Shown: positions 4,197 to 59,404 of the stretch, in pieces
Layout of the letters: every line of letters begins with the position of its first letter
Position numbering within the stretch: position 1 is the stretch's first letter
DNA from: an uncultured Christensenella sp.
GTDB taxonomy: Bacteria; Bacillota; Clostridia; Christensenellales; UBA1242
DNA: 64,000 nt
Direction: 5' to 3'
NCBI GenBank assembly: GCA_964579205.1
Contig: CAZOFH010000002.1
Location: 21,108-85,107, forward strand
Notes under the pieces: model-generated
Told to the model about the DNA's origin: nothing
Databases searched by the model: none
Seen by the model: the letters and a program-made list of their open reading frames with translations, nothing else
Program-made: the position numbers and the translations under genes

Positions 4197-4276
4197 TTTG
4201 GGGGAATAGGGTAGGCGAGCCTTACTCAATCCGTCCCATTGCGCGAGATATGGTGGTCGGGTGGCAAAGGGGGGGG

Positions 4277-10409: not shown

Positions 10410-10419
10410 GAGGATAAAA

Positions 10420-15775: not shown

Positions 15776-15881
15776 TGTGGGTAAGTAGTAGATTTTTGTG
15801 TGGGTAAGTGATAGTTTTGTGCGGGATAATGCCCAAAAAACACTAATTCGCCCCCAAAATAAAATGCGTCATTGTGGATAA
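15776..15881 (-). promoter_or_regulatory. DnaA-box cluster upstream of dnaA (oriC-type / dnaA autoregulation)
   Basis: Perfect TTATCCACA (read as TGTGGATAA on +) at 15873-15881. TGTGGGTAA at 15776-15784 and 15799-15807. GCGGGATAA at 15821-15829. All in one orientation, with an AT-rich stretch at 15660-15740. Confidence 0.7.
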
Positions 15882-16015
15882 CTTACGAATTTTAATAAAA
15901 AATTTTTGAAAAAAGAGTGTCGCGATACTTTACTTTTTTTATTTTGTGTGCTAGACTTGTCTTATCACAAAAATAAAAATGTGCAGAAGATAAAATTTGA
16001 GAAAAGGGGGAAATT

Positions 16016-17389
16016 ATGCAGGAGTATATCGACAAACAATGGGCAAAGTGCCTAGATGATTTTCCCAAAAAAATCAGTTCTTGCGCGATGGATTTGTGGA
16101 TAAATACATTGCAGCCTATCAACATTGAGGACAACACGCTCGTGCTGGTCGCTCCGAATGATATGTGCCGCCAGATGATTTATGACACCTACCTAGTGCG
16201 TATGCAAGAGGTCTTGCGTGAGCATTTTAATCTCGAGAATGTCAAGGTGCTGCTGCCGCAAGAGCGTGACGAATATGTCGATGATTACAATCGCAGCCAT
16301 TCGAGGGGCGACACCGTGCTAGAGAATAAAGACGCTACTATTCAGAACCCATTCAATCCGAGATACACTTTTGACAACTTTGTCGTAGGTACGACCAATC
16401 AGGTGATTTATGCAGCCGCTCGTGCCGTCGCTGAGTCGCCTGCGATTAGGTTTAACCCGCTGTTTATCTACGGGGCGTCGGGGTTGGGCAAGACTCACCT
16501 GTTGCACGCGATTGGTAATTACATTTGGGCGCACAAGACCAGCAACCTAAATATCGTCTATGTGACCTGTGAGCAGTTTACTAATGCCTTTTTGGAGGCA
16601 ATTCGTGTCAGCCGCGAAAAGGGGATGGATGCCTTTCATCGCAGATACCGTCAGGCAGATGTTTTGCTAATCGACGATATTCAGTTCATCAGTAGCAAAA
16701 AAGGTGTCCAAGAGGAATTTTTCAACACCTTTAATGACCTTTACCAAGCGGGCAAGCAGATTATCATCAGTAGTGACCGTCCACCCAAAGATATCGAGAC
16801 GCTCGAGGAGAGGCTGCGTTCGCGTTTTGCAGGAGGATTTATGCAGGATATCCAGCCGCCAGACTTTGAGACGAGGCTGCTCATCATTCAGAAGAAAATC
16901 GAGTTGGAGCGCTTTGAGTTTGAAAAGGGCGTCGACTACGAGTTGGCAGAGAGGTTGTGCAATCTCAATATCCGCGAGATGGAGGGGATTTTGCGCAAGA
17001 TTTACTTTTTGGCGAATTTCCACGGCAAAGTCGTGGCGACCAAGGCTGATATGGAGGAAGTGCTGCAAAAAGAGGGCAACCAGCCTCCTGTGCTCGACTC
17101 AAAACTCACTCCTGAGCGTATCATAGAGGCTGTCTGTGAGTACTTTACCATTGACGAAAAAGACCTCACAGGGCGCAAGCGCAACAAAGAAATTGTCGAG
17201 CCAAGGCAGATTTGTATCTACCTAATGTGGTCGCAGCTCGCTATTCCGCTGATGGCGATTGGGCAGATTTTCGGCAGAGATCACACCACAATTATTCACG
17301 CGCGTGACAAAATTATGGAGCAGGTCAAGACCAGTGGGCAACTCAAGAAAATCTTGAGTGACATCACCGCAATGCTCAAAGACTATTGA
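16016..17389 (+). CDS. dnaA: chromosomal replication initiator protein DnaA
   Basis: Walker A GASGLGKTHLLHAIGN, Walker B LLIDDIQF, RSRF, domain IV IGQIFGRDHTTIIHA. Confidence 0.96.
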   Translation: MQEYIDKQWAKCLDDFPKKISSCAMDLWINTLQPINIEDNTLVLVAPNDMCRQMIYDTYLVRMQEVLREHFNLENVKVLLPQERDEYVDDYNRSHSRGDTVLENKDATIQNPFNPRYTFDNFVVGTTNQVIYAAARAVAESPAIRFNPLFIYGASGLGKTHLLHAIGNYIWAHKTSNLNIVYVTCEQFTNAFLEAIRVSREKGMDAFHRRYRQADVLLIDDIQFISSKKGVQEEFFNTFNDLYQAGKQIIISSDRPPKDIETLEERLRSRFAGGFMQDIQPPDFETRLLIIQKKIELERFEFEKGVDYELAERLCNLNIREMEGILRKIYFLANFHGKVVATKADMEEVLQKEGNQPPVLDSKLTPERIIEAVCEYFTIDEKDLTGRKRNKEIVEPRQICIYLMWSQLAIPLMAIGQIFGRDHTTIIHARDKIMEQVKTSGQLKKILSDITAMLKDY

Positions 17390-17459: not shown

Positions 17460-17620
17460 GCCTTTATTATTTTGTTTTGCTCGTGTTTGGCGTCGGAATG
17501 AGAAAATTTTTTATCAGGAGAGCAGGGGGGGGCGGGCTCTCAAACCGAGCAAAAATGCCAAAAATCACATCATTTTGGGCAACTTTTTATAAAAAAAATC
17601 AAAAATATCCACAAAATTAG

Positions 17621-44800: not shown

Positions 44801-47800
44801 CGACTACAATGTAGAATTGTCACAGACTATGCGCAAGAATTTGACCAAAAATCAAGTCTACCGCATAGTTATCGGTGCGATTGACGACAATGGCGAAAAA
44901 ATCGCCAAGACAGTTTCGCTGCAATGGACATTCACTCCTCAACAAGTGACGCGTATGGATATCGCGCATTACAGTGATGCAATCAATAGCGGCGCAAAAC
45001 TGACTCAAGCAGGCGATACCCCTACCAACACAATAGTAGCGGGTGAGTACGGCTTGCTCAAGATTAGCATTTCGCCAGACTATGCCAACTTTGAGCGCAT
45101 CACCCTCACTAGTAGCGAGGTAAACGGCAGCCCTATGGCATTTGACCAAAGAGTGCTAGAGGTGACTACCGACCGAACGACTGGTGAGGAGGTGTACAAT
45201 TACCTCACTTGGCAACAGGGCGTCGGGGTAATCACAAATGGTATTTCGCTACACCGCGTGAGCCTAGCGAATGGCGCTTTTGACGGTAATTTCTATGTGC
45301 GTACTATCTGCTTGCGCACCTTGCCCACAGGTACGCAATTTACCGTCACTGTGACTATTACGCAGAATGGGCAGCAGTATAGTTTCGCGAGGACACTCAC
45401 CGTGTACAAGACAGATACTCTGTCGCTAGAGGGGGAGAATTATAGCGACATTTTGGGGCATTATATCGTGGCAGAGGGTACGGGGTATGTATCGCCTAAT
45501 ACTTGGGTGCAAAACCAAAACCCTCTGACTGTCCAAATCGGTGCCGCATATTATGATACCGAAATCTCAGTCGATTCTGCTAGTGCTGCTCTCGGTGCTA
45601 GCGTGGTACGAGAAAACGGCAAATACTACCTCTACACAGGTAGGGTGAGCAAGAATAACCTCATCACCGTGACCTTGACCGCAAAGCAAAATATAGGCGG
45701 CTTTACATACCGCGCGACTAGGTCGATAACCTACGAGGTAGTGGACTTTTATATCCGCACATTGCGTGCTGACGAAGTAATGCCTACGACCAAGAGATAC
45801 GCGTTTATCGACGAAAAGTACTATGACTTTGATTTGTTCATCGGCATAGATGCGACGAATATAAACAAACTCACCGTCATCACTTTTGACCCGAGCAATG
45901 TGGCTACGTGTCAAAAAGTGCTCGACACTATCAATAGCCTAAATGGTATGGGGGTCACCCCGTACAATGGTTGGCTACGTAGGGTAGTAGAGTCGGACGG
46001 GAGGATTGCGTTCGCAGCGATTCAGCCGAAACTCGTTGCTGATGACCAATGGATAGACAACAATTATCAATTCCTCACCACCGCCACTGGGTACAAAGTA
46101 TTGAGTAGTGGCATCAGCACGGGCAACATTTTGCGCTACGAAATGCTATTCTATTACGACGCAGGTTCGTTTACCTTGACTGATAGCCAGTCAGACGCGA
46201 CATTCGGAATGTCGACCGACAATATAAACCTAGAATTTTATCAGGTGACTAGCCAAGAGCATCCTCAGCCTATCAGGACGCTAAACCAGTTTATGTCGAT
46301 GCAGGCTGATATCGACTACATTCTGCTCAACGACCTGACTATCACCGATGCGTGGACTCCGCTCAACGTGGCTGTCAAGAGTTTCAATGGTAATGGCTAC
46401 AGTATCCATTTTGACGCGACTAGCATTACGCCTGCTGGCGAGGACGCAAACTACGGTTTGTTTGGTACCATTGATGCAAAATCCGTCATCAAGAATGTGC
46501 GGATTGTACTAGGGGCTGATGGCTTGGCAATCAATGACGGTGAGGCGGCTCTAGGCAAACTAAACTTTGGTATCCTCGCAGGTACCAACAACGGTACCGT
46601 ATACAACTGTGAGGTATACGGGCTCAATAACAAGCAGGCAGCGATAGCGATGTCAGCCAACCCTGCCTCGACCTCTGTGAGTCACAATATCGCGGGTCTA
46701 GTCGCTATCAATACTGGCGGCATCAGTAATAGCCGTGTGCAGTACACCAGCCTAAGGGCGGGGGGTAATGTGGCAGGACTGGTAGTAGACAATAGCGGTA
46801 CTATCGCAGGTTCATTCTACTCGGGCGGTACTATTACCAACCTATCAGAGACAGAGACTTTCGCTACCTCGGGACTGGTAATCAACAATGCTTATGACGG
46901 CAAAATCACCTCTAGTTATGTAGGTGGTACATACACCGTCACCGACGCAGAGGGTAATACCTCTCTAGACACTCGCACCGCGGTAGCCAATACTAGAGAC
47001 GCGACTATTCAGTCAGGTGTGACCTCGGCAGGCTTTGTATACACAAACTACGGTAGCATCGCAGACTGCTATTCGGCAGTAGAGATATTCTCGACCAAGA
47101 TGAGCGGTTTTGTATTCACAAACTACTCATCAGGTACGATAGCGCGCTGCTATTCGACTAGCGACCTATCAGGTACGGGCTCAATCATCGCTAGTTACCC
47201 ATTCATTGGTGCGAATAGCGAGAATGCTAGCACAAACAACAACCTAAACAAAACCAACGGTATCACGAATTGTTATTACTACGACTCTGGCTTTGCGAAT
47301 ACTAGACTAGAGGAGGCGGCTCCGCTCGGCATCGACGACTTTTGCGGCGCGAATGGCAGCACAGTCTTTGCAGACTATATCTTCTCACGCGATGGCGAAG
47401 CGGGCTCAGAATTTACAGGAGTATGGGTGTTCGCCCAAAAAGACCACTTGTACTTTACTCCACAACGCTTTGTGTCTACTCTGCAAGTCGCCGCAGATGC
47501 AAGTATTGACAAATTGTATACCAACTTTGGACCGAAATTGGTCAGTGCGAGCCTCATCGCAACTCCAAGAATGCAACTCGTCAAATCTGAGGAAAATGCC
47601 GCTGGCGAAATCGTACACACATATGCCAACAAGTACACATCGGTGTTTACTTTGGAGGAAAATGGCGACTACTTTACCGACTATAGTTATGACCCAATCG
47701 TAGTCAGCAATATGGAGCAATTCAATAGCGCTTTTGACGCTGAGAGCGACAATCTAGTAGTCAAGGGCGAGGGCAGTGGTGCTATCATCTTGAGTAATAT

Positions 47801-50800
47801 TAGGATAGTCAGCGACCTCAACCAAAGCAACCTCGCTAATGGCGAAACGCTGCATTCACCTAGCGCAAACTATGCGGGCATTCTGGCTGGTAATGGCTTT
47901 GAATTCGGCGACATCTCGCTGGCTGTCAATAGCCAAGATATCGAGGCATACGGGCTCATCGGTCGCTTGAGTCGTGTGACTGCTACGGTAGACGACACGA
48001 CTAACTACATCGGTACTATCAAAAATTACTCTGCGACAGTATCGAATATCGCCTGCTCGACCGTGACGTATGTCGGAGGCTTGGTCGGCTGGGTAGACAG
48101 TGCCAACCTCTACGATGTCGAGGTAACCAATCAATATGGTAGAGTAGTGGGCAACAATGTCGTCGGTGGTATCGCAGGATACGTCACTGGTACTAGTAGG
48201 ATACACACTGCTTTTGCCAATGTCGGTGTCACAGCCAACTACCGTGCGAATACCGAAAAAATCTACAATCACGACCTCGTGAGAGTATACGGGCTAGAGA
48301 CTGCGCGCAAGGTGAATATCGACCTCGTAGGCTACGCCGGTGGGCTATTCGGAATAATCGACCTCACGCCATTTGACCAGACGAATCCTAGTTCGTCGGA
48401 CCCATTTGAGGCGCGCGTGTACAACATTAGCAACAATTCAAATGCTAGTGTCGTCGGCAAAATTGCTGGTGGTCTCATCGGTGGTGTCGGCGAATATTCA
48501 GTGATTTATAAGGCAAAAAAGACTGTTATCACAGGAGCACTGGTCAAGGGGTACGTCTTTGCCGGTGGTATCGCTGGACAAAATAACGGCTTTATCAAAT
48601 ATGCATCAGTAGAATACACTAGCGACATTCAGGCGATAGTAGATGCTGCGCGCACTGGTGAAACAGTGGCAGATGCGTACCTAGACTACTTTAATGCGGG
48701 CACTTCACCTCTAGCGATAGGTGGTATCGTTGGGCTGAATATCGGCTCAAACAACATAAACTGGCCGGGTGGTACTATCCAACTCAGTAGTACCAAGATA
48801 GCCATTCGTGATAGCACCGCTGGCAATGCTGGTGGTATCGCGGGGGCGGTCTATGGCGGAGACTTGAGGGCGTGTCTGGCTACTGGCGGCATAGTGGCGA
48901 GCAATCGTGCTTATGTCGGCGGCATCGTCGGATACCTGTCAGACTTTAGCGCGGACAATGCGATTCTCATCGGTATGGACAATCCATTCGGCGAGGCAAA
49001 GACTTGTGGCACCACGCTAGACTACCTAGTAGGTATGAATAACTACCTCGCGTCGGATTATAATTACTATTATACCCTATATACCAACGATACCAAGGGT
49101 ATCAATGGCGCTATCGGTGGAATAGTGGGCTATGTGCTAGACCGTTCACTCATATACACTACACACACAGTAGCCAATGGCTCGGATGACCCATACGCGT
49201 ACCTTACGCATCCGTCAAACTACTTTGTGTCGCAGATTAGCAACCGTGTGCTCTCTACCGCGCTCACTACACCGCTCAATAGTGGCACTGGCTACTTTGA
49301 CTTGTACCAAGAGGATGACTTGGGCGTGATGACCTTTAGCCGAGCAGTGGGCAAATATGGCTCAGATACCACGCTAAACCTCGCTCAAGGTAAGACACGC
49401 GGCTATATGATGCAAAATCGCGCTACCATCTTTGACGGGTGGGACGAATACAGCCTAGACACTTCGTCGGGCACCCCTAGCATAGTAGAAAAGGATTTGC
49501 CTGACATTATCGAGATAAGTACTATCCAAGACCTCAGCATTATGTACTGGCACCCTGACAAAGACTATGTGCTAGTCGATGACATCGATTTTCAAGACCA
49601 TACCGCTCCTGCAGGGGAAAAGAGGATTTTGGCACCATTCTATGCTATCGGCTCTGAGAGTTCGCCATTTACAGGTAGTTTTACGAGTCGTGCAAAAGCA
49701 GACGGCTCTTTGCCAGTCATCAAGAATGTGTATATTATCAACTCTGACGCGTCGAGCATAGGCTTCTTTGGGGCGATTAGTAATGCGCACATCTCGAATA
49801 TCATTATTCAAGACATCCATTACAACACCGCGCTAAACAAAAATGTAAAAGCGTGGGTCGGCGGTCTCGCTGGTGTCGTAACTAATAGTACGGTGCAGAA
49901 TGTGTCTATCCGCATTACTGATACGGCTAACTCAGGGATTTTTACCAACGCAAATGTCGCTGGTGGAATGTTTGGGCTAGTCAGGTCGCTCAATGACGGC
50001 GAAACGCTGATTGAGGCGTGCTATGTAGAGAATAACCTAATCTTGGGTGACAATGTCTACTCAGCGGCACTGCAGACTGGTGCTGTGGCAGCATACTACG
50101 GTGGATTTGCTGGTCAAATCACAGGCGATGTGACCATTTCGGGCGCAATGGCTGTGGGCGATATGACGGTCAATTACACCGATATGACTACTACCACAAT
50201 GACTGCGCAAAACGCTAGTGAAATCGAGCATATCGTAGGAGGCTTTGCTGGGCAGATTTCGGGCGAAGATGTCACCGAATCGGCTTGTGTCAGCGCAGTA
50301 GATGTCATTCTAAATAATGTCCTGTCTCATACACGGGCAGGAGGCTTTGCGGGAGTCATTGGTGGCACAAAACTTACCAAAGTCGACTCTCATAGTAACC
50401 TAAATATCAACTTTGCCAACCTAAACGATACCAAGATTTTGTATGTCGGCGGTCTAGTCGGCGAGCAGCGCAATGCTAGCACGCTCACAGGGTTTGTATC
50501 GGCAGGCGATATCCGCCTAAACGGCACCTATGGTATTAATACACTCAATACGACCGCTACGCACCACTTTGTGGCAGGTATTGTAGGACACTTGGGCGAC
50601 TCTGCACAGGTATCTAGCGGATATTCGGTAGCGTCGATTATCAATAATACTATGTTTGCCAACCTCGATATGGGCTTTGCTTCGGGCGACATTAGCGGGG
50701 TGAGCAACACTGGCTCTGTCAAGGTGGATCGCTCATACGCACTCACCGCTGGTGATAGAGCGAATGTCGGCACTACTAGTAGTGCTGTCCAAGGCGGGGG

Positions 50801-53489
50801 TGGACTGGATATCGGCACGGGCTTGTTTGTCCGCGACGACGCACAACTAGGTTATTATCGTATCAAGAATACCGCTACGCAAAACGAGTACTTTAATACC
50901 GCTTATGCAGCGCTATATGCTATCAATACGGGTTCGGGCAAAACTGCTCCTATCCGCATTGCCAATAGCACCGACTTTGCTACCAATATGGCATCGGCTA
51001 GTGATGAGTACCAGTATTATCTACAGATTACCGACATCACTTTGGGCAATACCAACAAATTGTACGGTACTGGCACGCAGGTGAGCGAATTCATCGGTTC
51101 GTACAATGGTGGCGGCAGCAAACTCATTCTGCCTGCACACTTTGACCTAGCACACGTGAGTACGCCTAATTGCGGACTATTCGGCACGGTGACTTCGACC
51201 GCTAGCCAGCCTAGTATGATTTTGGGCGTGGTGATGACCGATGTGATGATTTATGCAAATCTGATGAGTACGGTGGAGAACTTCGGTATCATCGCGGGCG
51301 AAACTACCGCCAATACGATTATGGCTAATTGCTACATCTCGGGCGAACTCAATCTCAATGTCGGGGGTACAACCGCTATAGGTGGGCTGGTCGGTAGTAG
51401 CGGCGGAATATTCATCGGCTGCGCAACTGATATTGATGCCAACCTCGACGGTAGTAGCGCATATCGCTATGGTGCGATTTATGGCGTGGCGAACACTCAA
51501 AATTCCCACATTACGCTATTTGATGTGCAATCTGCTGGTAAAATCACAAACTCAGGTAGTCAGGCGATAGTAGCTGGTATAATAGCGGACAATTCCGCCT
51601 CGACACTATATGCAAAGAATTGCTACACAGCGACCGAGATTGCTAGTGCATCGACTACTACCGCAAATGTAGTATACGAATTGGGTACCAAGGCTCACAA
51701 TGCAGCGGGCATCTGGTACGACCCTACCAATTCGCTCGACAAGACAAAGGACGCCGTGTGGGAAATATACGACTATTCGACCAACCGCGGTCAAAACTTC
51801 GTCGGGTCGAATTATGTCGCGCGTAATGATAGGAATTATGGCTTGCCAATCCTTAAGTGGCTCAACGACTCAAATCTCGCTACCGAGACTGGGGTAGGTA
51901 CCGCTACCAATCCGTATATTATCGACACCGCCGCGCAATTCGGCTGGATGCTCGAGAATAATACGAGCAGCAGGTACTACATCCTCAATAGCGATATTGA
52001 CTATCGTCTAGTCGCTGGTATCTCGGGGTATTCGGCGGGCGCATTCGCAGGCACGCTCAATGGTAACTATCATTATATCCGCAATATCAATAGCACACTG
52101 TTTACCACTATCGGTGGCAGCGTGACCAAACTCGGCTTTGACAATGTGTCAGTCGCTGCTGATACCGCGATTTTGGCGAATTCTACCACGAGTGCGTCTA
52201 CCGTGAGCCAAATTTACGCTGCAGCAACTACAGGCAAAGTCATTGGCTCAGGGCTGATAAGTAATAGTCTGTCGAATGGTGCAACTTTTGGCGAAGACGC
52301 TACGAATTGCTTTGCTACCGTTATCACTGACGAGGTGTACAACGGGCTAGATACTACGATTTGGGCATACAATGGTCAAGGTTATACTTTGAGTGGCTTT
52401 ATTAGCGACTGCAGGACTTTGGCAAAACCTATAGGCACGATGACAGTCGGCGCGCTCTCGAGTGGCTCGAGGACGCTCACCGCGCAAAATGCTCAAGACC
52501 TATACAATGCGCTATTCTACGCGACCCATTACTCAGGTCGGTACAAAATCAACTGTACCTTCACCACCCTAGACCTAGACGGGTACGCGCTGAATGTGCC
52601 TAATTCGGTCAGCGAAATTACTGGGCTAACGACTATCCAAGACGGATATTTGAGTGCCAACGCTATGGCAAAAATCAAGAGTACTAGCCTCAGCATCCAA
52701 AACTGTGGCTTGGCTAGCGACACTACCAATCCGCTCCTAGGTGATAGTAATGCCTCAGCCATTACAGTTTCGCTTTCAAATTGTCGAGTAATAGCGAATA
52801 GGGCAGGAGGCTTGCTCTACACTAGCATCACTGCGCCATTCACTCTCAATATCACCAATACGCGAGTTTTCCTCAATAGTCAAAATGTTGACCTCGTGGC
52901 TGGCTCTCGTGCCAATGCTACTGGCACCGTCACTATCAATGTGACCAATCTCGGCATTTACGGCGGCAAAATCCGCTCTGTGATAAATACGATTGATGGC
53001 GGCACGACCGATATGACTCTCAGCAATGTGTCGGGCACTGGCAGTATAGAGAATGTGGTCTCTACCAACGCAGGCACCGTGACTATCGACCTAAACACAG
53101 GTGTGTCGCTCGACTCAAATACTAATAGTATCATCGGCACAAATAGCGACACCGCGAATATCAACGTAAATAGTGTCCTGACGGCGACTGGGCTAGAGAA
53201 TTTTGCATTCGTGCAGAATAGCAGCGGGGTGGTCAACCTAACTATTTCTGCTGCCACTAGTCTCAGCGGTACCACAATCAGCGGTGTGGTAGGTACGTAT
53301 TCATGTCAAAACGCTACTACGCCCACGATCACAGTTACCTTGAATGCGAATTATGCAATCACCGCGACGACAAGCAACGCAATCATCGGCGGCTGTGCTA
53401 ATGGCGTAACATTTGACGAAGAGACGAACCTAACCTTTACACCGAATACTTATCAACTGACGGTCAACGGCGCAGCCTTTGGCGCGTAA
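38868..53489 (+). CDS. giant (4873 aa) surface lipoprotein: Ig-like (Big_2-type) modules plus multiple GLUG-motif blocks plus beta-solenoid-like C-terminus
   Basis: Uninterrupted 14,622-nt ORF. Signal peptide plus lipobox LCFAGC. Big_2-like IEWSSDSRYVVVTPNADGTRATITGV. GLUG-type repeats such as IAGLVAINTGGISNSRV, VAGLVVDNSGTIAGSFYSGG, VGGLVGWVDSANLYDVEV, IGGIVGLNIGSNN and VGGLVGEQRNASTLTGFVSAG. T/N/S-rich C-terminal repeats. No LPXTG or C-terminal TM seen. Confidence 0.9.
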   Translation: MAMSKLRYLWCGVLILLLVCGLCFAGCGNNIDNLSIKLSASGLVESEKEGEYDLTLVKTTGQDDLSWSAVVSAEVLGISGSMSPKIEWSSDSRYVVVTPNADGTRATITGVTSTSAPTVVTAYSIENRNAEARINVTNIVTPQRITGSKYAAGELGIPLGTPFSLLPGDLFQFYPSDATVPVYEYKIDGVTVSSDEEFTLQNLTDGYATLSAAPLDKSGYTTEQLAALSYTIQSVRIYNPLTDQNTTLTMAGQEGDVSEITLIKNAKNKNKAILTVNAPSSIEYSITSENNIVFDEETNKRGVLSVTFDAKTKQFTLVGVEALDEFCDVNIHFTIAGVKNSIVLTKTFAVRIVDYPTAISVNGVAGSTDVHLRVFDQYQSGVKGTPLRLNISPDSMLFTNISIAVDTTTQAENLTLMSSLLIDNKPFTGSLDNIKSGTTMYLTNSKGYGEFDILVYAADTRGTEDEVVRRITISLEQSVTSMTVDSAVLDNATSHLILEVDEYGSGAVINTRDLTVAITPQTASFDTVTVASEDEDIVDVSITDYTDCVITVRAKKIGQTRITLLAESGVRLNISVRVVARYKTMSISLDPNMSSVMYCADLTVTKPVEGVSDVETLSRAYIAKTGSGDGVYLMSAFYPQAAITSEMVSSIEFISSDNSIASLYNTNSSFYRNVLTTERAGVVSFDIKVKYYRLVGSSLVLQEEVMNSAFTIQVFERVASLSVNESSVELLAEVQSFGVGGSKPASVYDTANNSKTLKVTVNPSNSNITANDAIWSVVGNTSKITLSTTRGSETVVSVSPLAGNSLRVTATIVVSLTDLNGVTFTQEVKIVANKIQQITDVYINNYENSLKNNSLYFELFKDDGYTLDVSVAPTTATNKKLEYIIYDAELLPAWTAGQDVIRVYAGNNKYQYYNVLPRTAGDSAYATQYQCKTADLIYNEADGTYSIKPKRAGYAFVFIIPQDVANQKVDEITEGLTPQLRNVTDRSTIKRIPITVADGESVYYQLYTADDVASIGSTDAGLTKNYYLMNTIDMSAYINKQLNKDSSWEWTPIGSLSKPFSGTVQSMVYGGESPAQSIVGWSLSRNFDSIASGSTTDYRNYGIWGVVTGEIKNINIYINNYTVSQGVFVASGTTALNNYNYGLVVGRLGTRQITVEGTEDTITQYGRLTNVTVYCSNMTYIYARAGNNQNTLVSANLGAVGMLDAGTTADSINVSINSASISSDDLIINFGGIVGKNYGIVGGSAQINNYRNSASVTASVSVTYNTPKATQSTLGGAIGLNFGEARHISAQGSLSSDSQIAILGGVVGRNYYNAEYEIVDAEGNTMQSAALISNVLSAVRISTTAAGTIVGGVVGSSVGGEISFAYYDIYTVLINGTNSSLGLSGSGYTGGIAGTIENTDISYVIVQSYYIDSDVANISNARDSNGAIGGLVGRAKGGSISHSFVNAGLKASTGVVGGILGEAQSGADSATQISDVFARGYLTAPSANSGYAFVGRYASFVSIKDAYADFENDSLDAFYQKNGTVENIYLVRSTETTTDTTNAEIKIINRTELTGKSVAELLFEVDSWAIDSSATTPINGGLPYLLYDGAPFVRMVPNNVEVSARTFETMHEGKINTVLNVGTDDKKLILAYQEDAIYTLSDLFDLSTDLSLGADSISINYSLNNTSVIQLLTTANFVTTQFKVIGTGTVCMRISSSQNARAYDVVQICVIESFDSVDILDENRDSIIENSALGNYTTLKIKHNGSTQVFAEYTFDGQKISNFSGGIKFVTGLRYDASLDALETVRDTEGAILTNYNISIQSWQAGAYGSLDVLYHYVANNDKIALVSVGNDRTTRFVTIIIPYIDVQFYALDADKNITALNSYRYEISEFGELSFETQIYYGVSDIVMGVGDGTQIQSGEKLQAGVTIFNDAYDDSMTIDDLLYYQLYRVLDGGDTEELVAYFDPTLPAAQSVLGSNDIYVNFTDITFVAETNAVIIDYNVELSQTMRKNLTKNQVYRIVIGAIDDNGEKIAKTVSLQWTFTPQQVTRMDIAHYSDAINSGAKLTQAGDTPTNTIVAGEYGLLKISISPDYANFERITLTSSEVNGSPMAFDQRVLEVTTDRTTGEEVYNYLTWQQGVGVITNGISLHRVSLANGAFDGNFYVRTICLRTLPTGTQFTVTVTITQNGQQYSFARTLTVYKTDTLSLEGENYSDILGHYIVAEGTGYVSPNTWVQNQNPLTVQIGAAYYDTEISVDSASAALGASVVRENGKYYLYTGRVSKNNLITVTLTAKQNIGGFTYRATRSITYEVVDFYIRTLRADEVMPTTKRYAFIDEKYYDFDLFIGIDATNINKLTVITFDPSNVATCQKVLDTINSLNGMGVTPYNGWLRRVVESDGRIAFAAIQPKLVADDQWIDNNYQFLTTATGYKVLSSGISTGNILRYEMLFYYDAGSFTLTDSQSDATFGMSTDNINLEFYQVTSQEHPQPIRTLNQFMSMQADIDYILLNDLTITDAWTPLNVAVKSFNGNGYSIHFDATSITPAGEDANYGLFGTIDAKSVIKNVRIVLGADGLAINDGEAALGKLNFGILAGTNNGTVYNCEVYGLNNKQAAIAMSANPASTSVSHNIAGLVAINTGGISNSRVQYTSLRAGGNVAGLVVDNSGTIAGSFYSGGTITNLSETETFATSGLVINNAYDGKITSSYVGGTYTVTDAEGNTSLDTRTAVANTRDATIQSGVTSAGFVYTNYGSIADCYSAVEIFSTKMSGFVFTNYSSGTIARCYSTSDLSGTGSIIASYPFIGANSENASTNNNLNKTNGITNCYYYDSGFANTRLEEAAPLGIDDFCGANGSTVFADYIFSRDGEAGSEFTGVWVFAQKDHLYFTPQRFVSTLQVAADASIDKLYTNFGPKLVSASLIATPRMQLVKSEENAAGEIVHTYANKYTSVFTLEENGDYFTDYSYDPIVVSNMEQFNSAFDAESDNLVVKGEGSGAIILSNIRIVSDLNQSNLANGETLHSPSANYAGILAGNGFEFGDISLAVNSQDIEAYGLIGRLSRVTATVDDTTNYIGTIKNYSATVSNIACSTVTYVGGLVGWVDSANLYDVEVTNQYGRVVGNNVVGGIAGYVTGTSRIHTAFANVGVTANYRANTEKIYNHDLVRVYGLETARKVNIDLVGYAGGLFGIIDLTPFDQTNPSSSDPFEARVYNISNNSNASVVGKIAGGLIGGVGEYSVIYKAKKTVITGALVKGYVFAGGIAGQNNGFIKYASVEYTSDIQAIVDAARTGETVADAYLDYFNAGTSPLAIGGIVGLNIGSNNINWPGGTIQLSSTKIAIRDSTAGNAGGIAGAVYGGDLRACLATGGIVASNRAYVGGIVGYLSDFSADNAILIGMDNPFGEAKTCGTTLDYLVGMNNYLASDYNYYYTLYTNDTKGINGAIGGIVGYVLDRSLIYTTHTVANGSDDPYAYLTHPSNYFVSQISNRVLSTALTTPLNSGTGYFDLYQEDDLGVMTFSRAVGKYGSDTTLNLAQGKTRGYMMQNRATIFDGWDEYSLDTSSGTPSIVEKDLPDIIEISTIQDLSIMYWHPDKDYVLVDDIDFQDHTAPAGEKRILAPFYAIGSESSPFTGSFTSRAKADGSLPVIKNVYIINSDASSIGFFGAISNAHISNIIIQDIHYNTALNKNVKAWVGGLAGVVTNSTVQNVSIRITDTANSGIFTNANVAGGMFGLVRSLNDGETLIEACYVENNLILGDNVYSAALQTGAVAAYYGGFAGQITGDVTISGAMAVGDMTVNYTDMTTTTMTAQNASEIEHIVGGFAGQISGEDVTESACVSAVDVILNNVLSHTRAGGFAGVIGGTKLTKVDSHSNLNINFANLNDTKILYVGGLVGEQRNASTLTGFVSAGDIRLNGTYGINTLNTTATHHFVAGIVGHLGDSAQVSSGYSVASIINNTMFANLDMGFASGDISGVSNTGSVKVDRSYALTAGDRANVGTTSSAVQGGGGLDIGTGLFVRDDAQLGYYRIKNTATQNEYFNTAYAALYAINTGSGKTAPIRIANSTDFATNMASASDEYQYYLQITDITLGNTNKLYGTGTQVSEFIGSYNGGGSKLILPAHFDLAHVSTPNCGLFGTVTSTASQPSMILGVVMTDVMIYANLMSTVENFGIIAGETTANTIMANCYISGELNLNVGGTTAIGGLVGSSGGIFIGCATDIDANLDGSSAYRYGAIYGVANTQNSHITLFDVQSAGKITNSGSQAIVAGIIADNSASTLYAKNCYTATEIASASTTTANVVYELGTKAHNAAGIWYDPTNSLDKTKDAVWEIYDYSTNRGQNFVGSNYVARNDRNYGLPILKWLNDSNLATETGVGTATNPYIIDTAAQFGWMLENNTSSRYYILNSDIDYRLVAGISGYSAGAFAGTLNGNYHYIRNINSTLFTTIGGSVTKLGFDNVSVAADTAILANSTTSASTVSQIYAAATTGKVIGSGLISNSLSNGATFGEDATNCFATVITDEVYNGLDTTIWAYNGQGYTLSGFISDCRTLAKPIGTMTVGALSSGSRTLTAQNAQDLYNALFYATHYSGRYKINCTFTTLDLDGYALNVPNSVSEITGLTTIQDGYLSANAMAKIKSTSLSIQNCGLASDTTNPLLGDSNASAITVSLSNCRVIANRAGGLLYTSITAPFTLNITNTRVFLNSQNVDLVAGSRANATGTVTINVTNLGIYGGKIRSVINTIDGGTTDMTLSNVSGTGSIENVVSTNAGTVTIDLNTGVSLDSNTNSIIGTNSDTANINVNSVLTATGLENFAFVQNSSGVVNLTISAATSLSGTTISGVVGTYSCQNATTPTITVTLNANYAITATTSNAIIGGCANGVTFDEETNLTFTPNTYQLTVNGAAFGA

Positions 53490-53832: not shown

Positions 53833-55239
53833 ATGAAAGAAGATTTGACAATGACCGATTTGGTCGCCCTTTGCAAAAATCGCGGCTTTGTATTCGCGAG
53901 CAGCGAGATTTACGGCGGCTTGAGCAACTCTTGGGACTACGGCCCTCTAGGTGTAGAACTCAAGAATAACCTAAAATCTGCTTGGTGGAAGCGTTTTGTG
54001 CAAGAGGAGCCCCACAATGTCGGGCTAGACAGTGCCATTATTATGAACCCCAAAGTGTGGAAGGCGAGCGGTCACCTAGACGGATTTAGCGACCCGCTCA
54101 TCGATTGCAAGCAGTGCAAGACCCGCCACAGAGCGGACAAACTCATCGAGGAGTGGCTGCACGAGCGCGAGTTGGCTGGCGAAAAAATCGAGGTAGGTAG
54201 CGTCGAGGCGATGAGTGACGAGGCTCTCGAGCAGTTTATCCGCGACCACAATATCGTCTGCCCAAATTGTGGCAAGTGCGACTTTACCCCAATTAGAAAG
54301 TTCAACCTGATGTTCAAGACTTTTATCGGTGTGACCGAGGACAATGTAAATACTGTCTACTTGCGCCCAGAGACGGCAGGGGGGATTTTCGTCAATTTCA
54401 AGAATGTCCAGCGCGCTACCCGTAGCAAAATGCCTATGGGTGTATGCCAGATTGGCAAGGCTTTTCGTAACGAAATCACTCCGGGCAACTTTATTTTCCG
54501 TATGCGCGAGTTTGAGCAAATGGAGATGGAGTTTTTCTGTCATCCGGCTACCGCGCAATCTTGGCACGAGTACTACCGCAAGGAATGTTACAACTTTTTG
54601 TTGAGTCTCGGCATCGACCCGCAGTTGTTGCGTTTGCGTGACCACAGCCCTGAGGAATTGTGCTTTTACTCTGCTGCGACTACCGATATTGAGTTCAAAT
54701 TCCCATTCGGTTGGGGCGAATTGTGGGGTATTGCCAACCGTACCAATTACGACCTAACGCAGCACCAGACCGTGAGCGGGGAGGATATGAGTTACCTCGA
54801 CCCATTCACCAACGAAAGTTATATCCCGTATGTTGTGGAGCCTAGTGTCGGGGTGGATAGGATGTTTTTGGCAGTGCTGTGCAGCGCGTACCGCGAGGAA
54901 AAACTCGCCGACGATGATACCCGTGTAGTGCTAGGGCTCGCTCCTGCTATCGCTCCTATCAAGGTGGCAGTCCTGCCGTTGAGTAAAAAACTCGAGGAGC
55001 CTGCCTACGACCTGTTTAGACGCCTGAATAGCAAATTCCGTTGCGAATACGATGTCACAGGCTCTATTGGTAAGCGTTACCGCCGCCAAGACGAAATCGG
55101 TACGCCACTCTGCGTGACCGTCGACTTTGACACCGTCGAGGATAATTGCGTTACCGTCCGCGACCGCGACACAATGACCCAAGAGCGTATCAATATCGCC
55201 GACCTCGACACCTACCTTTTCAAAAAAATTTACGGCTAA
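53833..55239 (+). CDS. glyQS: glycine--tRNA ligase (alpha2 homodimeric type)
   Basis: LCKNRGFVFASSEIYGGLSNSWDYGPLGVELKNN, class II motif 2 (FRNEITPGNFIFRMREFEQMEMEFF), C-terminal anticodon-binding domain. Confidence 0.95.
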   Translation: MKEDLTMTDLVALCKNRGFVFASSEIYGGLSNSWDYGPLGVELKNNLKSAWWKRFVQEEPHNVGLDSAIIMNPKVWKASGHLDGFSDPLIDCKQCKTRHRADKLIEEWLHERELAGEKIEVGSVEAMSDEALEQFIRDHNIVCPNCGKCDFTPIRKFNLMFKTFIGVTEDNVNTVYLRPETAGGIFVNFKNVQRATRSKMPMGVCQIGKAFRNEITPGNFIFRMREFEQMEMEFFCHPATAQSWHEYYRKECYNFLLSLGIDPQLLRLRDHSPEELCFYSAATTDIEFKFPFGWGELWGIANRTNYDLTQHQTVSGEDMSYLDPFTNESYIPYVVEPSVGVDRMFLAVLCSAYREEKLADDDTRVVLGLAPAIAPIKVAVLPLSKKLEEPAYDLFRRLNSKFRCEYDVTGSIGKRYRRQDEIGTPLCVTVDFDTVEDNCVTVRDRDTMTQERINIADLDTYLFKKIYG

Positions 55240-55279
55240 TCTGCAATTATATAGTTCAGCAATAACAAAAACAAAGAAC

Positions 55280-55306
55280 AAAGCGACCTCAATCGGTCGC
55301 TTTTTC
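55280..55306 (+). terminator. intrinsic terminator after glyQS (AGCGACC/GGTCGCT stem)
   Basis: AAAGCGACC-TCAATC-GGTCGCTTTTT. Confidence 0.7.
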
Positions 55307-55451
55307 TCTTTGCATCTTGTTGTAATTCCTAAATGCACCGCCTCCCAAAAAGAGAACGGTCATCCTGAGTGTGGCATCCTCGCGCCCTCTTGCGTGAGGG
55401 TCTCATCTGCCTTGGCAACGGCAGTGCAGACAGAGACAAATAAAATCAACA

Positions 55452-55478
55452 AAGCGACCTTTTCGGGGCGCTTTTTTC
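55452..55478 (+). terminator. second terminator-like hairpin with related stem
   Basis: AAAGCGACC-TTTTC-GGGGCGCTTTTTT (one mismatch), about 150 nt after the first. Confidence 0.5.
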
Positions 55479-55484
55479 TTTTTG

Positions 55485-55536
55485 GGTTCGCTAACTCTCA
55501 CAGATTCCACGGACACCGTTGGCGCCCTCTGAATGG
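55485..55536 (-). repeat. intergenic repeat, copy B (inverted)
   Basis: Minus strand: CATTCAGAG-[GGCGCC AACG GTGTCC]-GTGGAATCTGTGAG-N6-GAACC. The hairpin pairs only on this strand, through two G-U pairs. Confidence 0.85.
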
Positions 55537-55639
55537 CAGCGGAGTGGCGGTGCCACAATTAATTTTATTAAGGGGTTCAGGGGGTCGCAATGTGTCTTGC
55601 CGTTGTGTGTGCCTCTGCACACAAAACTCCTCCCTCTTG

Positions 55640-55695
55640 TCATCCAGAGCAATCGTAAGGTTGCGTGGGAGCTGTGAGGCACGTAGTTCCGAACC
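55640..55695 (+). repeat. intergenic repeat, copy E (degenerate)
   Basis: TCATCCAGAG-[CAATC GTAA GGTTG]-CGTGGGAGCTGTGAG-N12-GAACC. Confidence 0.7.
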
Positions 55696-55869
55696 AAAAA
55701 ACGCAACAACTCGCATACTGCTCCAAAAGAATAGCCCCGTCCGAGCCTCCTAGACTATTTTTTTACCCCCAAAAAACTACCGAAAACCTTGTGGATAACT
55801 TTTTACATAAAAATTATCCAAAAACCTCTAAAAGAGTCGAAAATTGTGGAAAAATATGGTCAAAAACAC

Positions 55870-55900
55870 TTGACATTTTCGTCGGGGGGGGGGGTATACT
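55870..55900 (+). promoter_or_regulatory. sigma-A-like promoter TTGACA-19-TATACT with G11 tract in the spacer
   Basis: TTGACA 55870-55875, TATACT 55895-55900. Homopolymer G11 at 55884-55894. Lies 48 nt upstream of ATG 55948. Confidence 0.6.
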
Positions 55901-55947
55901 TGTTTGGAAAATATTGTTGTAAAATTCTCGTGGTGGTAGGGTAAAAT

Positions 55948-57474
55948 ATGATAAAACACATTATTGTACAGGCAGGCGGTCAGGGCTCCCGTCTCAAAAA
56001 ATTGACACGAAACAAGCCCAAAGCGCTGGTGTCAATCGACAATTTGCCTATTATTTTTCACCTGTTTAGGCAGTTCCCTGATGCGCACTTTGTGATAATA
56101 GGTGATTACAAGTGTGATGTGTTGCGCAAGTATCTCGACGCGTTTGCCGAGGTGGATTATGAGATAGTCGAGGCAAAGGACGGATGCAAAGGGACTTGTT
56201 CAGGGCTCAGCGATAGCCTAAAAATTATCCCTGCCGCTACGCCTTTTATGCTGATTTGGTGTGATTTGATTTTGGATAAAAATCTAGATTTCGCCTCTCT
56301 CGATTTGACCCGCAATTACTTGGGCTTGTCACAGGATTTTGAATGTCGCTGGATGTATCGAGAAGGGGTATTTAGTCAATATCCGTCTCGTGAGTACGGG
56401 GTGGCAGGGATGTTTTTGTTTCACGACAAAAATATTCTCAGCGCAGTGCCTAGCAGTGGCGAATTTGTGCAGTGGCTCAGTACGCAGAATATCGATTTTG
56501 AGACTATGGGCATACACGGGGCACAGGAGTACGGGCTATATGACTTTGTCAACTCGCTGGACAAGCCAAAGTGCCGCCCTTTCAATCAGATGATTTTTGA
56601 CGGCGACAAAGTGACCAAGGTTGGTATCGATGACCAAGGTCGGTCGCTGGCGAGACGGGAGCGGAATTGGTACAGTGTGGTGCAGTCGCTTGAGTTTGAG
56701 TCGCTCCCCAAGATTTATAGCCTCGAGCCACTCATCATGGAGCGGATAGATGGCAAGCCTATTTATGAATACGGCACACTCTCGACCGAGCAGAAAAAGG
56801 ACATTTTACGCAAAATTGTAGCCTGCCTAGACAGGTTGCACGGCATCGCGTCCGTGCCTGCTGATCGTGAGAGTTGCGAGTCAAACTATATCCAAAAGAC
56901 TCTCGACCGCCTGCAAAAAGTGCGTAAAATGATACCTTTCGCTGACCGTGAATATATCACTATCAATGGCAAGTCGTGCAAAAACTTCTTTTTCTGTATT
57001 GACGAGGTCGCAGAGGCTATGCGTCAGTACTATCCGAGCGAATTTCACTTTATCCACGGCGACAGCACATTTTCTAATATATTATTAAATAAGGATAATA
57101 CCCCTATTTTGATTGACCCGAGGGGGTATTTTGGTAGTACCGAATTGTACGGCGATGTAGCATATGATTGGGCGAAAGTCTACTACTCACTGGCGACGAA
57201 TTATGACGCGTTTAATCTCAAAAATTTTGACTTGCAGATTAATGCTGATGATGTCGAGCTGACCATTCCTGAGAACGGGTGGGGCGAGTTGCGTGAGTTT
57301 TACCTCGATTTGATAAAGGACGACTGTACGGTCGAGCAAATCAATCTGATTTTGGCGCTGATTTGGCTGTCGCTCACCACTTACGCGTGGGATGATTATG
57401 ATTCGATTTGTGGCGCCTTTTATGAGGGGCTGCTGGTGCTCAATGAGTGCGAATTTATGAGGGAGAAAAATTAA
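55948..57474 (+). CDS. bifunctional sugar-phosphate nucleotidyltransferase (N-terminal) / APH-ChoK-fold sugar kinase (C-terminal)
   Basis: N-terminal VQAGGQGSRLKKLTRNKPKALV (NTP-transferase signature). C-terminal FIHGDSTFSNILL...ILIDPRGYFG...YGDVAYDWAK (Brenner/APH motifs). Confidence 0.8.
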   Translation: MIKHIIVQAGGQGSRLKKLTRNKPKALVSIDNLPIIFHLFRQFPDAHFVIIGDYKCDVLRKYLDAFAEVDYEIVEAKDGCKGTCSGLSDSLKIIPAATPFMLIWCDLILDKNLDFASLDLTRNYLGLSQDFECRWMYREGVFSQYPSREYGVAGMFLFHDKNILSAVPSSGEFVQWLSTQNIDFETMGIHGAQEYGLYDFVNSLDKPKCRPFNQMIFDGDKVTKVGIDDQGRSLARRERNWYSVVQSLEFESLPKIYSLEPLIMERIDGKPIYEYGTLSTEQKKDILRKIVACLDRLHGIASVPADRESCESNYIQKTLDRLQKVRKMIPFADREYITINGKSCKNFFFCIDEVAEAMRQYYPSEFHFIHGDSTFSNILLNKDNTPILIDPRGYFGSTELYGDVAYDWAKVYYSLATNYDAFNLKNFDLQINADDVELTIPENGWGELREFYLDLIKDDCTVEQINLILALIWLSLTTYAWDDYDSICGAFYEGLLVLNECEFMREKN

Positions 57475-57475
57475 T

Positions 57476-58066
57476 ATGGTAGAATACTTTGAGAAAAATA
57501 TGTCCGTGCTAAACGACTCTATTGGGTCGCTGAGTGACGAATTGTGGGAAACTGTGGTCGCCGAGTGCGTGCGTACTATCAAAAACGGTGGCAAAGTCAT
57601 CGCTAGCGGCTTGGGCAAAAATGTCCCAATTTGCGAAAAGTTCGTCGGCACGCTAAACTCTTTTGGCATCCCTGCGGCTTTTTTGCACTCAAACACCGCT
57701 ATTCACGGCGATTTGGGTGTGGTAGGGGACAAGGATTTTGTCTTTGTGCTCTCAAAAAGTGGTAATACCCAAGAGTCAGTGCTTTTGACTGCGTTGCTAC
57801 TTGATTACGGAGTGAATACTTGGCTACTCAGTTGCAACGGGGTTTCGAGACTTACCGATATGCTAAAAAAGAAAGTTATCCTAAAACTTGCCCACGAGGG
57901 CGACTTGTGGGATATCGCTCCAAACAACTCTACGACAGTGTTTTTGATATTCTTGCAAGGTCTCGCTGTGCGTCTGTGCCAAGAGTTGGGCGTCACTTTG
58001 CAACAATTCCAGCGTAATCACCCAGGTGGTAGTATTGGCGAAAAATTGCGTGGCAAAAAAGCGTAG
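57476..58066 (+). CDS. SIS-domain sugar-phosphate isomerase (KdsD/GutQ-like core, no CBS pair)
   Basis: GGKVIASGLGKNVPICEKFVGTLNSFGIPAAFLHSNTAIHGDLGVV...VLSKSGNTQES. ATG lies 1 nt after the upstream stop. Confidence 0.8.
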   Translation: MVEYFEKNMSVLNDSIGSLSDELWETVVAECVRTIKNGGKVIASGLGKNVPICEKFVGTLNSFGIPAAFLHSNTAIHGDLGVVGDKDFVFVLSKSGNTQESVLLTALLLDYGVNTWLLSCNGVSRLTDMLKKKVILKLAHEGDLWDIAPNNSTTVFLIFLQGLAVRLCQELGVTLQQFQRNHPGGSIGEKLRGKKA

Positions 58067-58100: not shown

Positions 58101-58469
58101 ATGCAAAAAACGTGGATTTTTGACCTTGACGGCACTTTGGTCGAACACAACGGCTACCTAAAATATGGCGAGGATGTGCTGCTGGACGGGGTAAAGGAGT
58201 TTTTTGACACTATTCCTGAGGGCGATATGATAGTTATTCTCAGTGCCCGTTCCTCGGCGTACGGCGCTCAAACTGTTGAGTTTTTGCGCAAAAATGGTAT
58301 CAGATACAATCTTATTATTTTTGACGCGCCCAAAGGGGAGCGGATTTTGGTGAACGACAAAAAGCCTGACGGGCTAAAATGTGCTTATGCAATCAATGTC
58401 GATAGGAACGATTTTGGTAATGTGTGGAGCGAGTTGGGCGATAAAAGAGGGGAGAGCGAGAACAAATGA
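58101..58469 (+). CDS. HAD-superfamily phosphatase
   Basis: Motif I WIFDLDGTLV, small cap, motif III-like VNDKKPDG. Start uncertain (ATG 58101 or GTG 58073; ORF-track 58026 overlaps the SIS gene). Confidence 0.7.
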   Translation: MQKTWIFDLDGTLVEHNGYLKYGEDVLLDGVKEFFDTIPEGDMIVILSARSSAYGAQTVEFLRKNGIRYNLIIFDAPKGERILVNDKKPDGLKCAYAINVDRNDFGNVWSELGDKRGESENK

Positions 58470-59404
58470 GTTTTTGGAGAAAAGTCAAGCACGGTCTATT
58501 CATCGGCGCCAGTTTCGCTGGTGCTTTTTTGTCGTTTCCGTTGCTTTTACGCAGACTTCGTAAGCAAAAAAGGGACGATGAGGTGATTATCGCGCTGTTT
58601 CCTCATTTCGGCGATGTGGTTTATGGGATGCTGTACGCCGAGCAATATCACAAGGAAACAGGCACAAAAGTCAGCGTCTATTGTGGTGACAATGTCGCTC
58701 ATATGATGAAAAAGTATCCCTTTGTCGATAGGGTCATCACATATCGCAAAAACTCGCTCGAGCAATTTAGAGTGATTTTGTTTTCGCCTTTGCGCTATGC
58801 TACTATAAAAAAGGAAAATTACGACGGCATTATCGCCACCGTCCCACCCAAGCACCATTTTAGGGGACGTGCGGTCGTCGAGGTTTACCGTGACTTAATT
58901 TATAAGGTGCAGGAGGACAAAATGGCTCTCTTTATCCCCGATACCGTGCCGATTACTTCGATACCTGATTTTGAGAGTAAAAAAGATAGGATAATCGTCA
59001 TCAATCCGTACTCGTTTTCGCACGGCTACAATAGGGAGTTGTTTGAGAAATTGGTAGTTGCCTTGCGAGGTAAAGGCTACATAGTCTATACCAACGCTGT
59101 GGCAAAATTCGGTCAACAGCCTATCAAGGGTTCTCTGCCTCTCGACTGTTCTGTCGAGGAATTGTATGCCATTGTCAACAAAATCCCGCTGTTTATTTCG
59201 GTGCGTTCGGGGATTTTGGATGTAATGGTGAGCGGACAAGGCAATCTCTTTGCCCTCCACTTCAAACGTAATCATTGGATGCGCACTTATTTCCCGTTGC
59301 GTGATTTGCGTCCTAATAATGTTTATGACGCTGTTTGGTTCAAAAAAGCCGACACCCCGCGCGTCATTCATAGAATAGAAACCGTGTTGCAAGAAATAAA
59401 ATAA
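58466..59404 (+). CDS. putative glycosyltransferase, GT9 (heptosyltransferase)-like, with N-terminal anchor
   Basis: ATGA start/stop overlap with the HAD gene. Layout VIIALFPHFGDVVYGMLYAEQY...VDRVITY and IIVINPYSFS...LFEKLVVALRGKGYIVYTN...FISVRSGILDV resembles the GT9 two-Rossmann pattern. This is a by-eye assignment only. Confidence 0.5.
   Translation: MSFWRKVKHGLFIGASFAGAFLSFPLLLRRLRKQKRDDEVIIALFPHFGDVVYGMLYAEQYHKETGTKVSVYCGDNVAHMMKKYPFVDRVITYRKNSLEQFRVILFSPLRYATIKKENYDGIIATVPPKHHFRGRAVVEVYRDLIYKVQEDKMALFIPDTVPITSIPDFESKKDRIIVINPYSFSHGYNRELFEKLVVALRGKGYIVYTNAVAKFGQQPIKGSLPLDCSVEELYAIVNKIPLFISVRSGILDVMVSGQGNLFALHFKRNHWMRTYFPLRDLRPNNVYDAVWFKKADTPRVIHRIETVLQEIK

Follow-up and report, generated by a model that had tools for sequence, protein, structure and literature searches.

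A length-variable G tract within the promoter spacer of a putative sugar-activation operon: a candidate volume-control promoter in an uncultured Christensenellales-like lineage

The 64-kb stretch of DNA analysed here (hereafter the window) carries, downstream of a gene identified as GlyRS by its domain and family matches (glyS, 53833-55239), four genes on the plus strand that are tightly packed or overlapping (57474/57476; 58466-58469) and are treated here as one operon. The terminator-like hairpin found behind glyS (55280-55303, plus strand; a 9-bp stem, 5 of its pairs being G-C, with a T-rich tail) implies that this operon needs a promoter of its own. The original prediction had proposed one, made of the hexamers TTGACA and TATACT held 19 nt apart by a spacer containing eleven G, and its coordinates are confirmed by direct reading of the window: on the plus strand, the -35 hexamer TTGACA occupies 55870-55875, the spacer (ttttcgtc followed by G11) 55876-55894 and the -10 hexamer TATACT 55895-55900, both hexamers being recognised by consensus match as well as by conservation. 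The stretch spanning these elements reads cacTTGACAttttcgtcGGGGGGGGGGGTATACTtgtttgg, and the promoter lies 47 nt 5' of ATG 55948, the start of a 508-aa open reading frame. By run count, the G11 homopolymer (55884-55894, plus strand), which we propose to be a hypermutable simple-sequence repeat, supplies 11 of the 19 spacer nucleotides.

With regard to the host, the nearest named relatives of the GlyRS are labelled 'Clostridia bacterium', one syntenic relative (L001) stands in GenBank as 'Christensenella sp. UBA4651', of the order Christensenellales, and the presence in the window of a Bacillus-type HelD together with a CshA-like helicase fits a Firmicute. The gene order common to the close relatives is glyS, the operon, a helD-like gene and nrdR; the label 'Alistipes finegoldii' borne by one relative, which is syntenic with the others, is regarded as a binning error. 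Since two relatives had been binned as Alistipes or Bacteroidales, a Bacteroidetes-type promoter (TAnnTTTG) was considered and rejected: the motif is unmatched, canonical TTGACA-17-TATAAT sites are abundant in the window, and both the Clostridia names of the GlyRS relatives and the Firmicute-type HelD and CshA further disfavour it. As to the wider neighbourhood, gyrB and gyrA (8451-12876) are located upstream of dnaA (16016-17389), and it is tRNA-Gly, instead of dnaN, that comes after dnaA; such an arrangement is unusual against the common order dnaA-dnaN-recF-gyrB. A giant ORF of 4873 aa (38868-53489, plus strand), almost devoid of recognisable domains apart from a single sub-threshold match to Big_2, lies 2.5 kb upstream of the operon. 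The idea that its product is the target of glycosylation was set aside as unsupported, the ORF not being next to the operon in one of the clades of relatives described below (clade B).

The first gene of the operon (55948-57474, plus strand; Pfam NTP_transf_3 plus APH) encodes a fusion of 508 aa in which an N-terminal sugar-1-phosphate nucleotidyltransferase is joined to a kinase domain with the APH (aminoglycoside-phosphotransferase-type) fold at the C-terminus. Its family matches are weak (HddC, NF049965 at 2.8e-6; MurU; AglF), as are its best sequence matches in the PDB, namely Yersinia HddC 5xhw (6e-5) and 6jq8. The kinase domain is an APH (Pfam PF01636), neither a GHMP kinase like HddA nor a PfkB kinase like HldE/RfaE, and its role may be analogous to that of a heptose kinase though the family differs. 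The second gene (57476-58066, plus strand; Pfam SIS) encodes a single-domain SIS sugar-phosphate isomerase that is closest to the arabinose-5-phosphate isomerases KpsF/GutQ/KdsD (E = 1e-27 to 1e-28), with PDB matches to 3etn (2e-21) and 2xhz (KdsD, 1e-14), while family and PDB sequence searches returned no match to GmhA at E < 0.01. The third gene (58101-58469, plus strand) encodes a small phosphatase assigned to the HAD type by its family matches, which carries MQKTWIFDLDGTL, containing HAD motif I (DLDGT), after ATG 58101. This ATG is probably the true start; the mechanically called ORF, from GTG 58026, overlaps the second gene, and the corresponding genes of relatives are called at 121-129 aa.

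The fourth gene (58466-59404, plus strand) encodes a 312-aa protein for which no Pfam or NCBIfam match was found, nor did any of the 16 sequences of its family yield a glycosyltransferase Pfam match at E <= 1. Its assignment as a GT9-like GT-B fold protein comes from an AlphaFold2 model built with 16 homologues (pLDDT 91.7, pTM 0.88) and from Foldseek, where PDB ranks 1-21 are all GT9 enzymes (3tov, WaaC, WaaF, TibC) with a probability of 1.00 and a query-normalised TM-score of 0.46-0.59. The best match of the family profile against the PDB is likewise 3tov, a Veillonella GT9 structure, at a marginal E = 0.0015. At the N-terminus, a hydrophobic helix precedes a basic cluster, which on the predicted structure suggests a membrane anchor with a cytoplasmic catalytic domain. 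Homologues of this gene adjoin homologues of the first gene in most of the distant loci fetched, which span several phyla.

The claim that these genes make and transfer an activated sugar is backed by the fusion protein, the SIS isomerase, the HAD phosphatase and the GT9-like fold. Judging from its domain content, the synthesis of a nucleotide-activated sugar by the operon is supported, and the transfer of this sugar is very probable; we infer that the product is a surface glycan, while the sugar itself may be a heptose, a pentose or something else. The same four activities as in the GDP-D-glycero-alpha-D-manno-heptose pathway (GmhA, HddA, GmhB, HddC) are followed here by a GT9-like transferase, and the HAD phosphatase and the sugar-1-phosphate nucleotidyltransferase of an NDP-heptose pathway are present at the domain level only. 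Unlike in that pathway, however, the isomerase is nearest to arabinose-5-phosphate isomerases, with no GmhA match, the kinase has an APH fold rather than a GHMP or PfkB fold and is fused to the nucleotidyltransferase, and the transferase, in contrast to GT9 heptosyltransferases, has no Pfam GT9 match.

When the plus strand of the intergenic region (55240-55950) was scanned for sigma-70-type consensus sites with spacers of 15-20 nt, TTGACA-19-TATACT scored 11 of 12 consensus positions and no second site reached 10 of 12 within these roughly 700 bp; the sole other site scored 9/12, its -10 box abutting the ATG. The view that this is the only recognisable promoter of the operon is thereby borne out, and from their sequence the two hexamers presumably act as its functional promoter. 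Over the whole window, 18 intergenic sites reach 10 or more of the 12 consensus positions, among them eight with a 17-nt spacer, five with an 18-nt spacer and a single one with 19 nt, which is the operon promoter itself. Four sites are perfect 12/12 matches to TTGACA/TATAAT, with spacers of 17, 17, 18 and 17 nt, and one of them precedes the tRNA-Gly gene. The statement that good promoters of the window have spacers of 17-18 nt is thus in line with the tally. A further strong promoter-like site, TTGACA-16-TATGAT (58204-58231, plus strand, 11/12), lies within the HAD gene, 235 nt 5' of the GT9-like gene, and to judge from its sequence it could allow expression of the transferase independently of the tract.

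Upstream of the -35 box, a motif scan detected three 9-mers resembling DnaA boxes (55790-55853, unstranded), namely TGTGGATAA at 55790, TTATCCAAA at 55814 and TGTGGAAAA at 55845; this cluster spans 64 bp and comprises one perfect TTATCCACA and two boxes with one mismatch. The motifs TGTGGATAAC and TGTGGAAAAA are retained in clades B and C (alignment A3), and the only other cluster of this kind in the window (15776-16103) is found at the start of the dnaA gene (16016-17389). A replication origin at the upstream cluster was rejected, GC skew being positive window-wide with no switch. From its motifs, the segment 55790-55853 is a possible regulator-binding region where DnaA may act as a transcription factor, and the conservation of the motifs suggests additional, non-stochastic regulation. 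Downstream of the promoter, an invariant block of alignment A3 in the presumed 5' leader corresponds to a conserved TTGTAAAA(T/A) element (55917-55925, plus strand). The conserved TTGTAAAAT was rejected as a second promoter, given that its -10 reads TAAAAA in clades B and C and that it has no -35 box. A non-coding RNA was likewise rejected: no Rfam family reached its threshold in the 700-bp intergenic region (best score 26 bits against a gathering score of 75), and no tRNA was found nearby.

These conserved elements raise the question of whether the operon is transcribed mainly under other control, with only a small effect of the tract, be it through a regulator at TGTGGATAA or TGTGGAAAA (possibly DnaA), a promoter that is not of the sigma-70 type, or read-through from glyS. 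The three conserved DnaA-box-like 9-mers within 64 bp upstream of the -35 box and the TTGTAAAA element of the leader speak for it, as does the restriction of our scans to sigma-70-type sites. We nevertheless hold it to be improbable, because the hexamers are invariant across clades and match a consensus that the genome clearly uses (the four 12/12 sites), a terminator-like hairpin stands behind glyS and the intergenic region offers no rival candidate at 10/12 or better. Moreover, an upstream regulator would add to control by spacer length and not replace it, and PMC2791445 describes such a combination, an upstream regulator acting together with spacer-length control, for meningococcal nadA.

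As for the tract itself, a homopolymer of at least about 8 nt between the -35 and -10 boxes of a sigma-70-type promoter is a defining trait of phase-variable promoters of the porA class, and the locus displays it. The G11 is the longest run of G or C in the window; the remaining long G runs are two G8 and all C runs are at most 6 nt. From the base counts of the window, runs of G or C of at least 11 nt are expected about 0.013 times per 64 kb. Neither of the two G8 runs lies in a promoter spacer: one (4269-4276) directly follows the stop codon of a minus-strand ORF (4277-5044) and the other (17525-17532), located between dnaA and tRNA-Gly, sits within a hairpin loop flanked by gagagc/gctctc.

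A single window was inspected initially, and two-colour Illumina chemistry is able to create poly-G, so that a run of this kind could in principle be a chance or artefactual homopolymer. This explanation can hardly be credited. Apart from the low chance expectation, the tract is found at the same position and between conserved flanks in 14 assemblies obtained from different samples and by different pipelines, and on these comparisons a pure artefact may be considered effectively excluded.

Relatives of the locus were gathered by a scan of genome collections, by a protein search with cluster listing and by look-ups of contigs encoding the exact protein. The resulting comparison of tracts rests on 14 independent assemblies (NCBI, ENA, JGI, Logan) that fall into three clades with about 70-100% identity of the first-gene protein: at least 96% to the window in clade A, about 72% in clade B and about 70% in clade C. 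Across 10 aligned relatives from the three clades (alignment A3), the columns holding cTTGAC, the G tract and TATnnT are invariant, while the mean column identity of the alignment is only about 66%; the -10 box occurs as TATACT, TATAAT or TATGCT. At a per-site identity of about 65%, the chance that ten sites survive in two further lineages can be roughly estimated at 0.65^20 = 2e-4. Beyond the three clades, the nearest relative (L044, with 64% identity and no synteny) shows an ordinary-looking TTGTCG-17-TAGAAT site and, by eye, no tract. The matches listed in a metagenome scan (three-sequence alignment) were all at most 54% identical and without the operon promoter.

The length of the tract, in contrast to its position, is not uniform. 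Within clade A, the window and L046 (whose -10 box is TATAAT) have G11 and a 19-nt spacer, L045 has G10 and 18 nt, and L039 has an interrupted tract, G6AG3, with 17 nt. Most members of clade B have G10 and an 18-nt spacer (L047, which is the same as L001 and to which L048 is 100% identical; L040; L042; L051; L052), the two others being L041 with G9 and 17 nt, and L050 with G11 and an inferred spacer of 19 nt, its contig beginning 7 nt before the tract. Clade C comprises L002 (G10, 18 nt), L043 (G8CG2, 19 nt) and L053 (G11, 18 nt, with a left part of 7 nt). Over the 14 assemblies, this amounts to one G9, seven G10, four G11 and two interrupted tracts, and to spacers of 17 nt in two cases, 18 nt in eight and 19 nt in four, the most frequent state in relatives being 18 nt (G10); nearly the whole range of 17-19 nt is due to the G tract. 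A uniform tract length across strains had been named beforehand as the observation that would speak against phase variation; it was looked for, and the relatives carry G9, G10 and G11 instead. Likewise, the spacers of 18 and 17 nt that the loss of one or two G was expected to give are both present among them.

Three pairs of near-identical sequences (99.8-99.97% identity) are especially informative, the tract being the sole indel in each: L040 and L041 differ over 5539 nt by 1 mismatch and 1 gap, L047 and L050 over 3045 nt by 0 mismatches and 1 gap, and L045 and L046, whose first-gene proteins are identical, over 1999 nt by 3 mismatches and 1 gap. Tract length differing between close strains with unchanged flanks is a further hallmark of the porA class, and it is what these pairs display. 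It should be kept in mind that the consensus of an assembly is error-prone at homopolymers of G9-G11. The two interrupted alleles, G6AG3 and G8CG2, involve base substitutions, however, which homopolymer miscounting cannot produce, and they resemble the stabilised alleles of contingency loci. One further sequence was left out of the tally: in L049 (positions 42-88; contig coverage 4.9x), the 47 nt covering the -35 box, the spacer and the tract diverge, for the most part through A-to-C and G-to-T changes, and the apparent promoter-replacement allele was rejected as a probable base-calling artefact.

The main rival to phase variation is that the tract is a conserved but static promoter element, such as a regulator site or a structural motif, its one-G differences reflecting noise from sequencing or assembly, or else slow neutral drift. 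The prevalence of G10 (7 of the 14 assemblies) is compatible with this, and points to a tract that may be rather stable; errors are known to arise at homopolymers, L049 illustrates that badly miscalled reads may occur around the tract, the G11 of L050 sits only 7 nt from a contig end, and conservation across three clades would equally be expected of a protein-binding site. Yet each of the three clades shows length differences, and these run both ways (9, 10 and 11), G11 recurs in two independent clade A samples (the window and L046), alignments of 2-5.5 kb contain no indel other than the tract, and a binding site is unlikely to tolerate changes in length in addition to the substitutions of G6AG3 and G8CG2. 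We therefore judge a static element unlikely. Retention of at least 10 G through this divergence, at what is nonetheless the most indel-prone spot, is the pattern expected of a selected contingency locus.

Additional evidence comes from the distant homologous loci, in 260 kb of which six G or C runs of at least 9 nt were observed against 1.39 expected. L012, a Clostridia MAG of 28.5% GC, has a G11 (5351-5361) with a frame break inside the homologue of the first gene, and its tblastn match is split between residues 3-126 and 125-506 in different frames; read from this sequence, the gene loses its frame at the tract, a situation known from classical intragenic phase variation. L003, a Selenomonadales MAG, has a C10 (2051-2060) that splits the GT9-like homologue into two frames. 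The other runs comprise two G9 in L008 (7629 and 9212), each at the 5' end of an unannotated ORF that lies downstream of the operon, a G10 in L035 (258) close to the 5' end of a reading frame for a hexapeptide acyltransferase that shortly precedes the GT9-like gene, and a run in L021 (1514) that is among those of 9-10 nt. Their distribution suggests that the sugar pathway has repeatedly been placed under repeat-mediated switching, and the occurrence of coding-region repeats in the same gene set of other lineages argues for selection on switching itself, against the view of a merely G-rich motif.

The closest parallel is the porA promoter of Neisseria meningitidis, where a G homopolymer of 9-11 nt likewise lies inside the spacer of a sigma-70-type promoter and where 11G gives full surface expression, 10G a 2-fold drop and 9G a 13-fold drop (PMC3639595); the original report on spacing is that of van der Ende et al. 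(1995), as cited in PMC5084427. At porA, single-G changes shift the spacing and grade expression, as is proposed for the present operon. The target of porA control is a cell-surface trait, and the likeness presumes that the product here is a surface glycan; the differences are that the regulated unit would be an operon of four genes for sugar activation and transfer instead of a porin, and that the host belongs to an uncultured Gram-positive-type Clostridia lineage instead of being a proteobacterial pathogen. Poly-C tracts within the promoter spacer are also found at opc and fetA of N. meningitidis.

Other systems share part of these features. According to PMC8437040, PMC8355987 and PMC6321876, Campylobacter jejuni and Helicobacter have poly-G/C tracts (8-11 nt) in their genes for capsule, LOS and glycosylation, heptose-related capsule genes included, and these tracts create surface-glycan heterogeneity. 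As in these loci, a poly-G tract is here tied to glycan-modifying genes; most Campylobacter tracts, however, are intragenic and act as ON/OFF switches by frameshift, whereas the tract of our operon is placed in a promoter spacer, and the intragenic type is encountered in the distant homologues L012 and L003. Homopolymer length near or within a promoter also tunes transcription at the tpr promoters of Treponema pallidum (poly-G) and at Helicobacter pylori sabA, a poly-T "rheostat", according to PMC7864442 and PMC4081817, and the same is proposed here. Those tracts lie 5' of the -35 box or the transcription start, or adjoin it, in contrast to the position between the -35 and -10 boxes observed here, and the organisms and target genes differ as well.

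In light of these comparisons, we regard it as probable that the G tract constitutes a slipped-strand "volume-control" promoter in the manner of meningococcal porA. According to this model, a hypermutable G homopolymer would lie in the spacer of a housekeeping-sigma promoter of canonical type (TTGACA ... TATACT), and slipped-strand mispairing during replication would add or remove single G residues. The number of G would set the distance between the -35 and -10 boxes at 17, 18 or 19 nt and thereby alter promoter strength, resulting in a graded, heritable yet reversible "volume control" of expression, with switching presumably frequent within a population. That transcription depends on tract length is presumed from the preference of window promoters for 17-18 nt together with the porA precedent; the effect of 18- and 19-nt spacers in this host is assumed from E. 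coli and Bacillus-type promoters. With a 19-nt spacer, the window would be caught in a state predicted to be weak or OFF. Under the control of such a promoter, the isomerase, the kinase, the phosphatase and the nucleotidyltransferase would deliver a nucleotide-activated sugar, which the putatively membrane-anchored GT9-like glycosyltransferase would pass on, presumably to an acceptor in the cell envelope.

The sequence comparisons support the view that a known mechanism, a spacer homopolymer of the porA class, acts on a new target in a host group new to it. Among pathogens, phase variation driven by repeats is familiar from Neisseria, Haemophilus, Campylobacter and Helicobacter, for example, and the switches described in gut commensals for the most part rely on invertible promoters (Bacteroides, Clostridioides difficile) or are epigenetic; to our knowledge, a random expression switch of the homopolymer type has rarely been described in the Clostridia group. 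If the volume-control model is correct, a spacer homopolymer of varying length shapes surface-glycan heterogeneity in commensal Firmicutes too, a heterogeneity that bears on phage resistance, immune recognition and strain persistence. For those who build MAGs, it would mean that the consensus length of the homopolymer at this promoter is biologically variable and not simply an error. The locus also draws attention to an uncharacterised pathway, widespread among phyla, that combines a nucleotidyltransferase/APH-type kinase fusion with an SIS isomerase, a HAD phosphatase and a Pfam-less GT9-like transferase.

It is tempting to go one step further, albeit as a speculation that we consider rather doubtful in its full form. 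Christensenellales-like gut Clostridia would have kept a contingency promoter since before the split of the three clades, stochastically tuning an uncharacterised NDP-sugar (possibly NDP-heptose) pathway and a new, Pfam-less GT9-like family, and the same pathway would have come independently under repeat control in other gut Firmicutes by way of tracts in the kinase/nucleotidyltransferase gene or in the transferase gene. Should this hold, bet-hedging in commensals would recurrently act on the glycan or the soluble NDP-sugar, with phage or host immunity as the plausible adversary; PMC11461863 and PMC11573728 present NDP-heptoses as agonists of ALPK1.

Finally, a second G run is present about 300 bp upstream of the first. 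It reads aGGGGGt in the window (55580-55584), and at the same site the two closest relatives carry a G8 (L045:98-105 and L046:825-832). Clade B lacks the roughly 440 nt of intergenic DNA (55310-55750) in which this run sits, its intergenic region measuring only about 280 nt.
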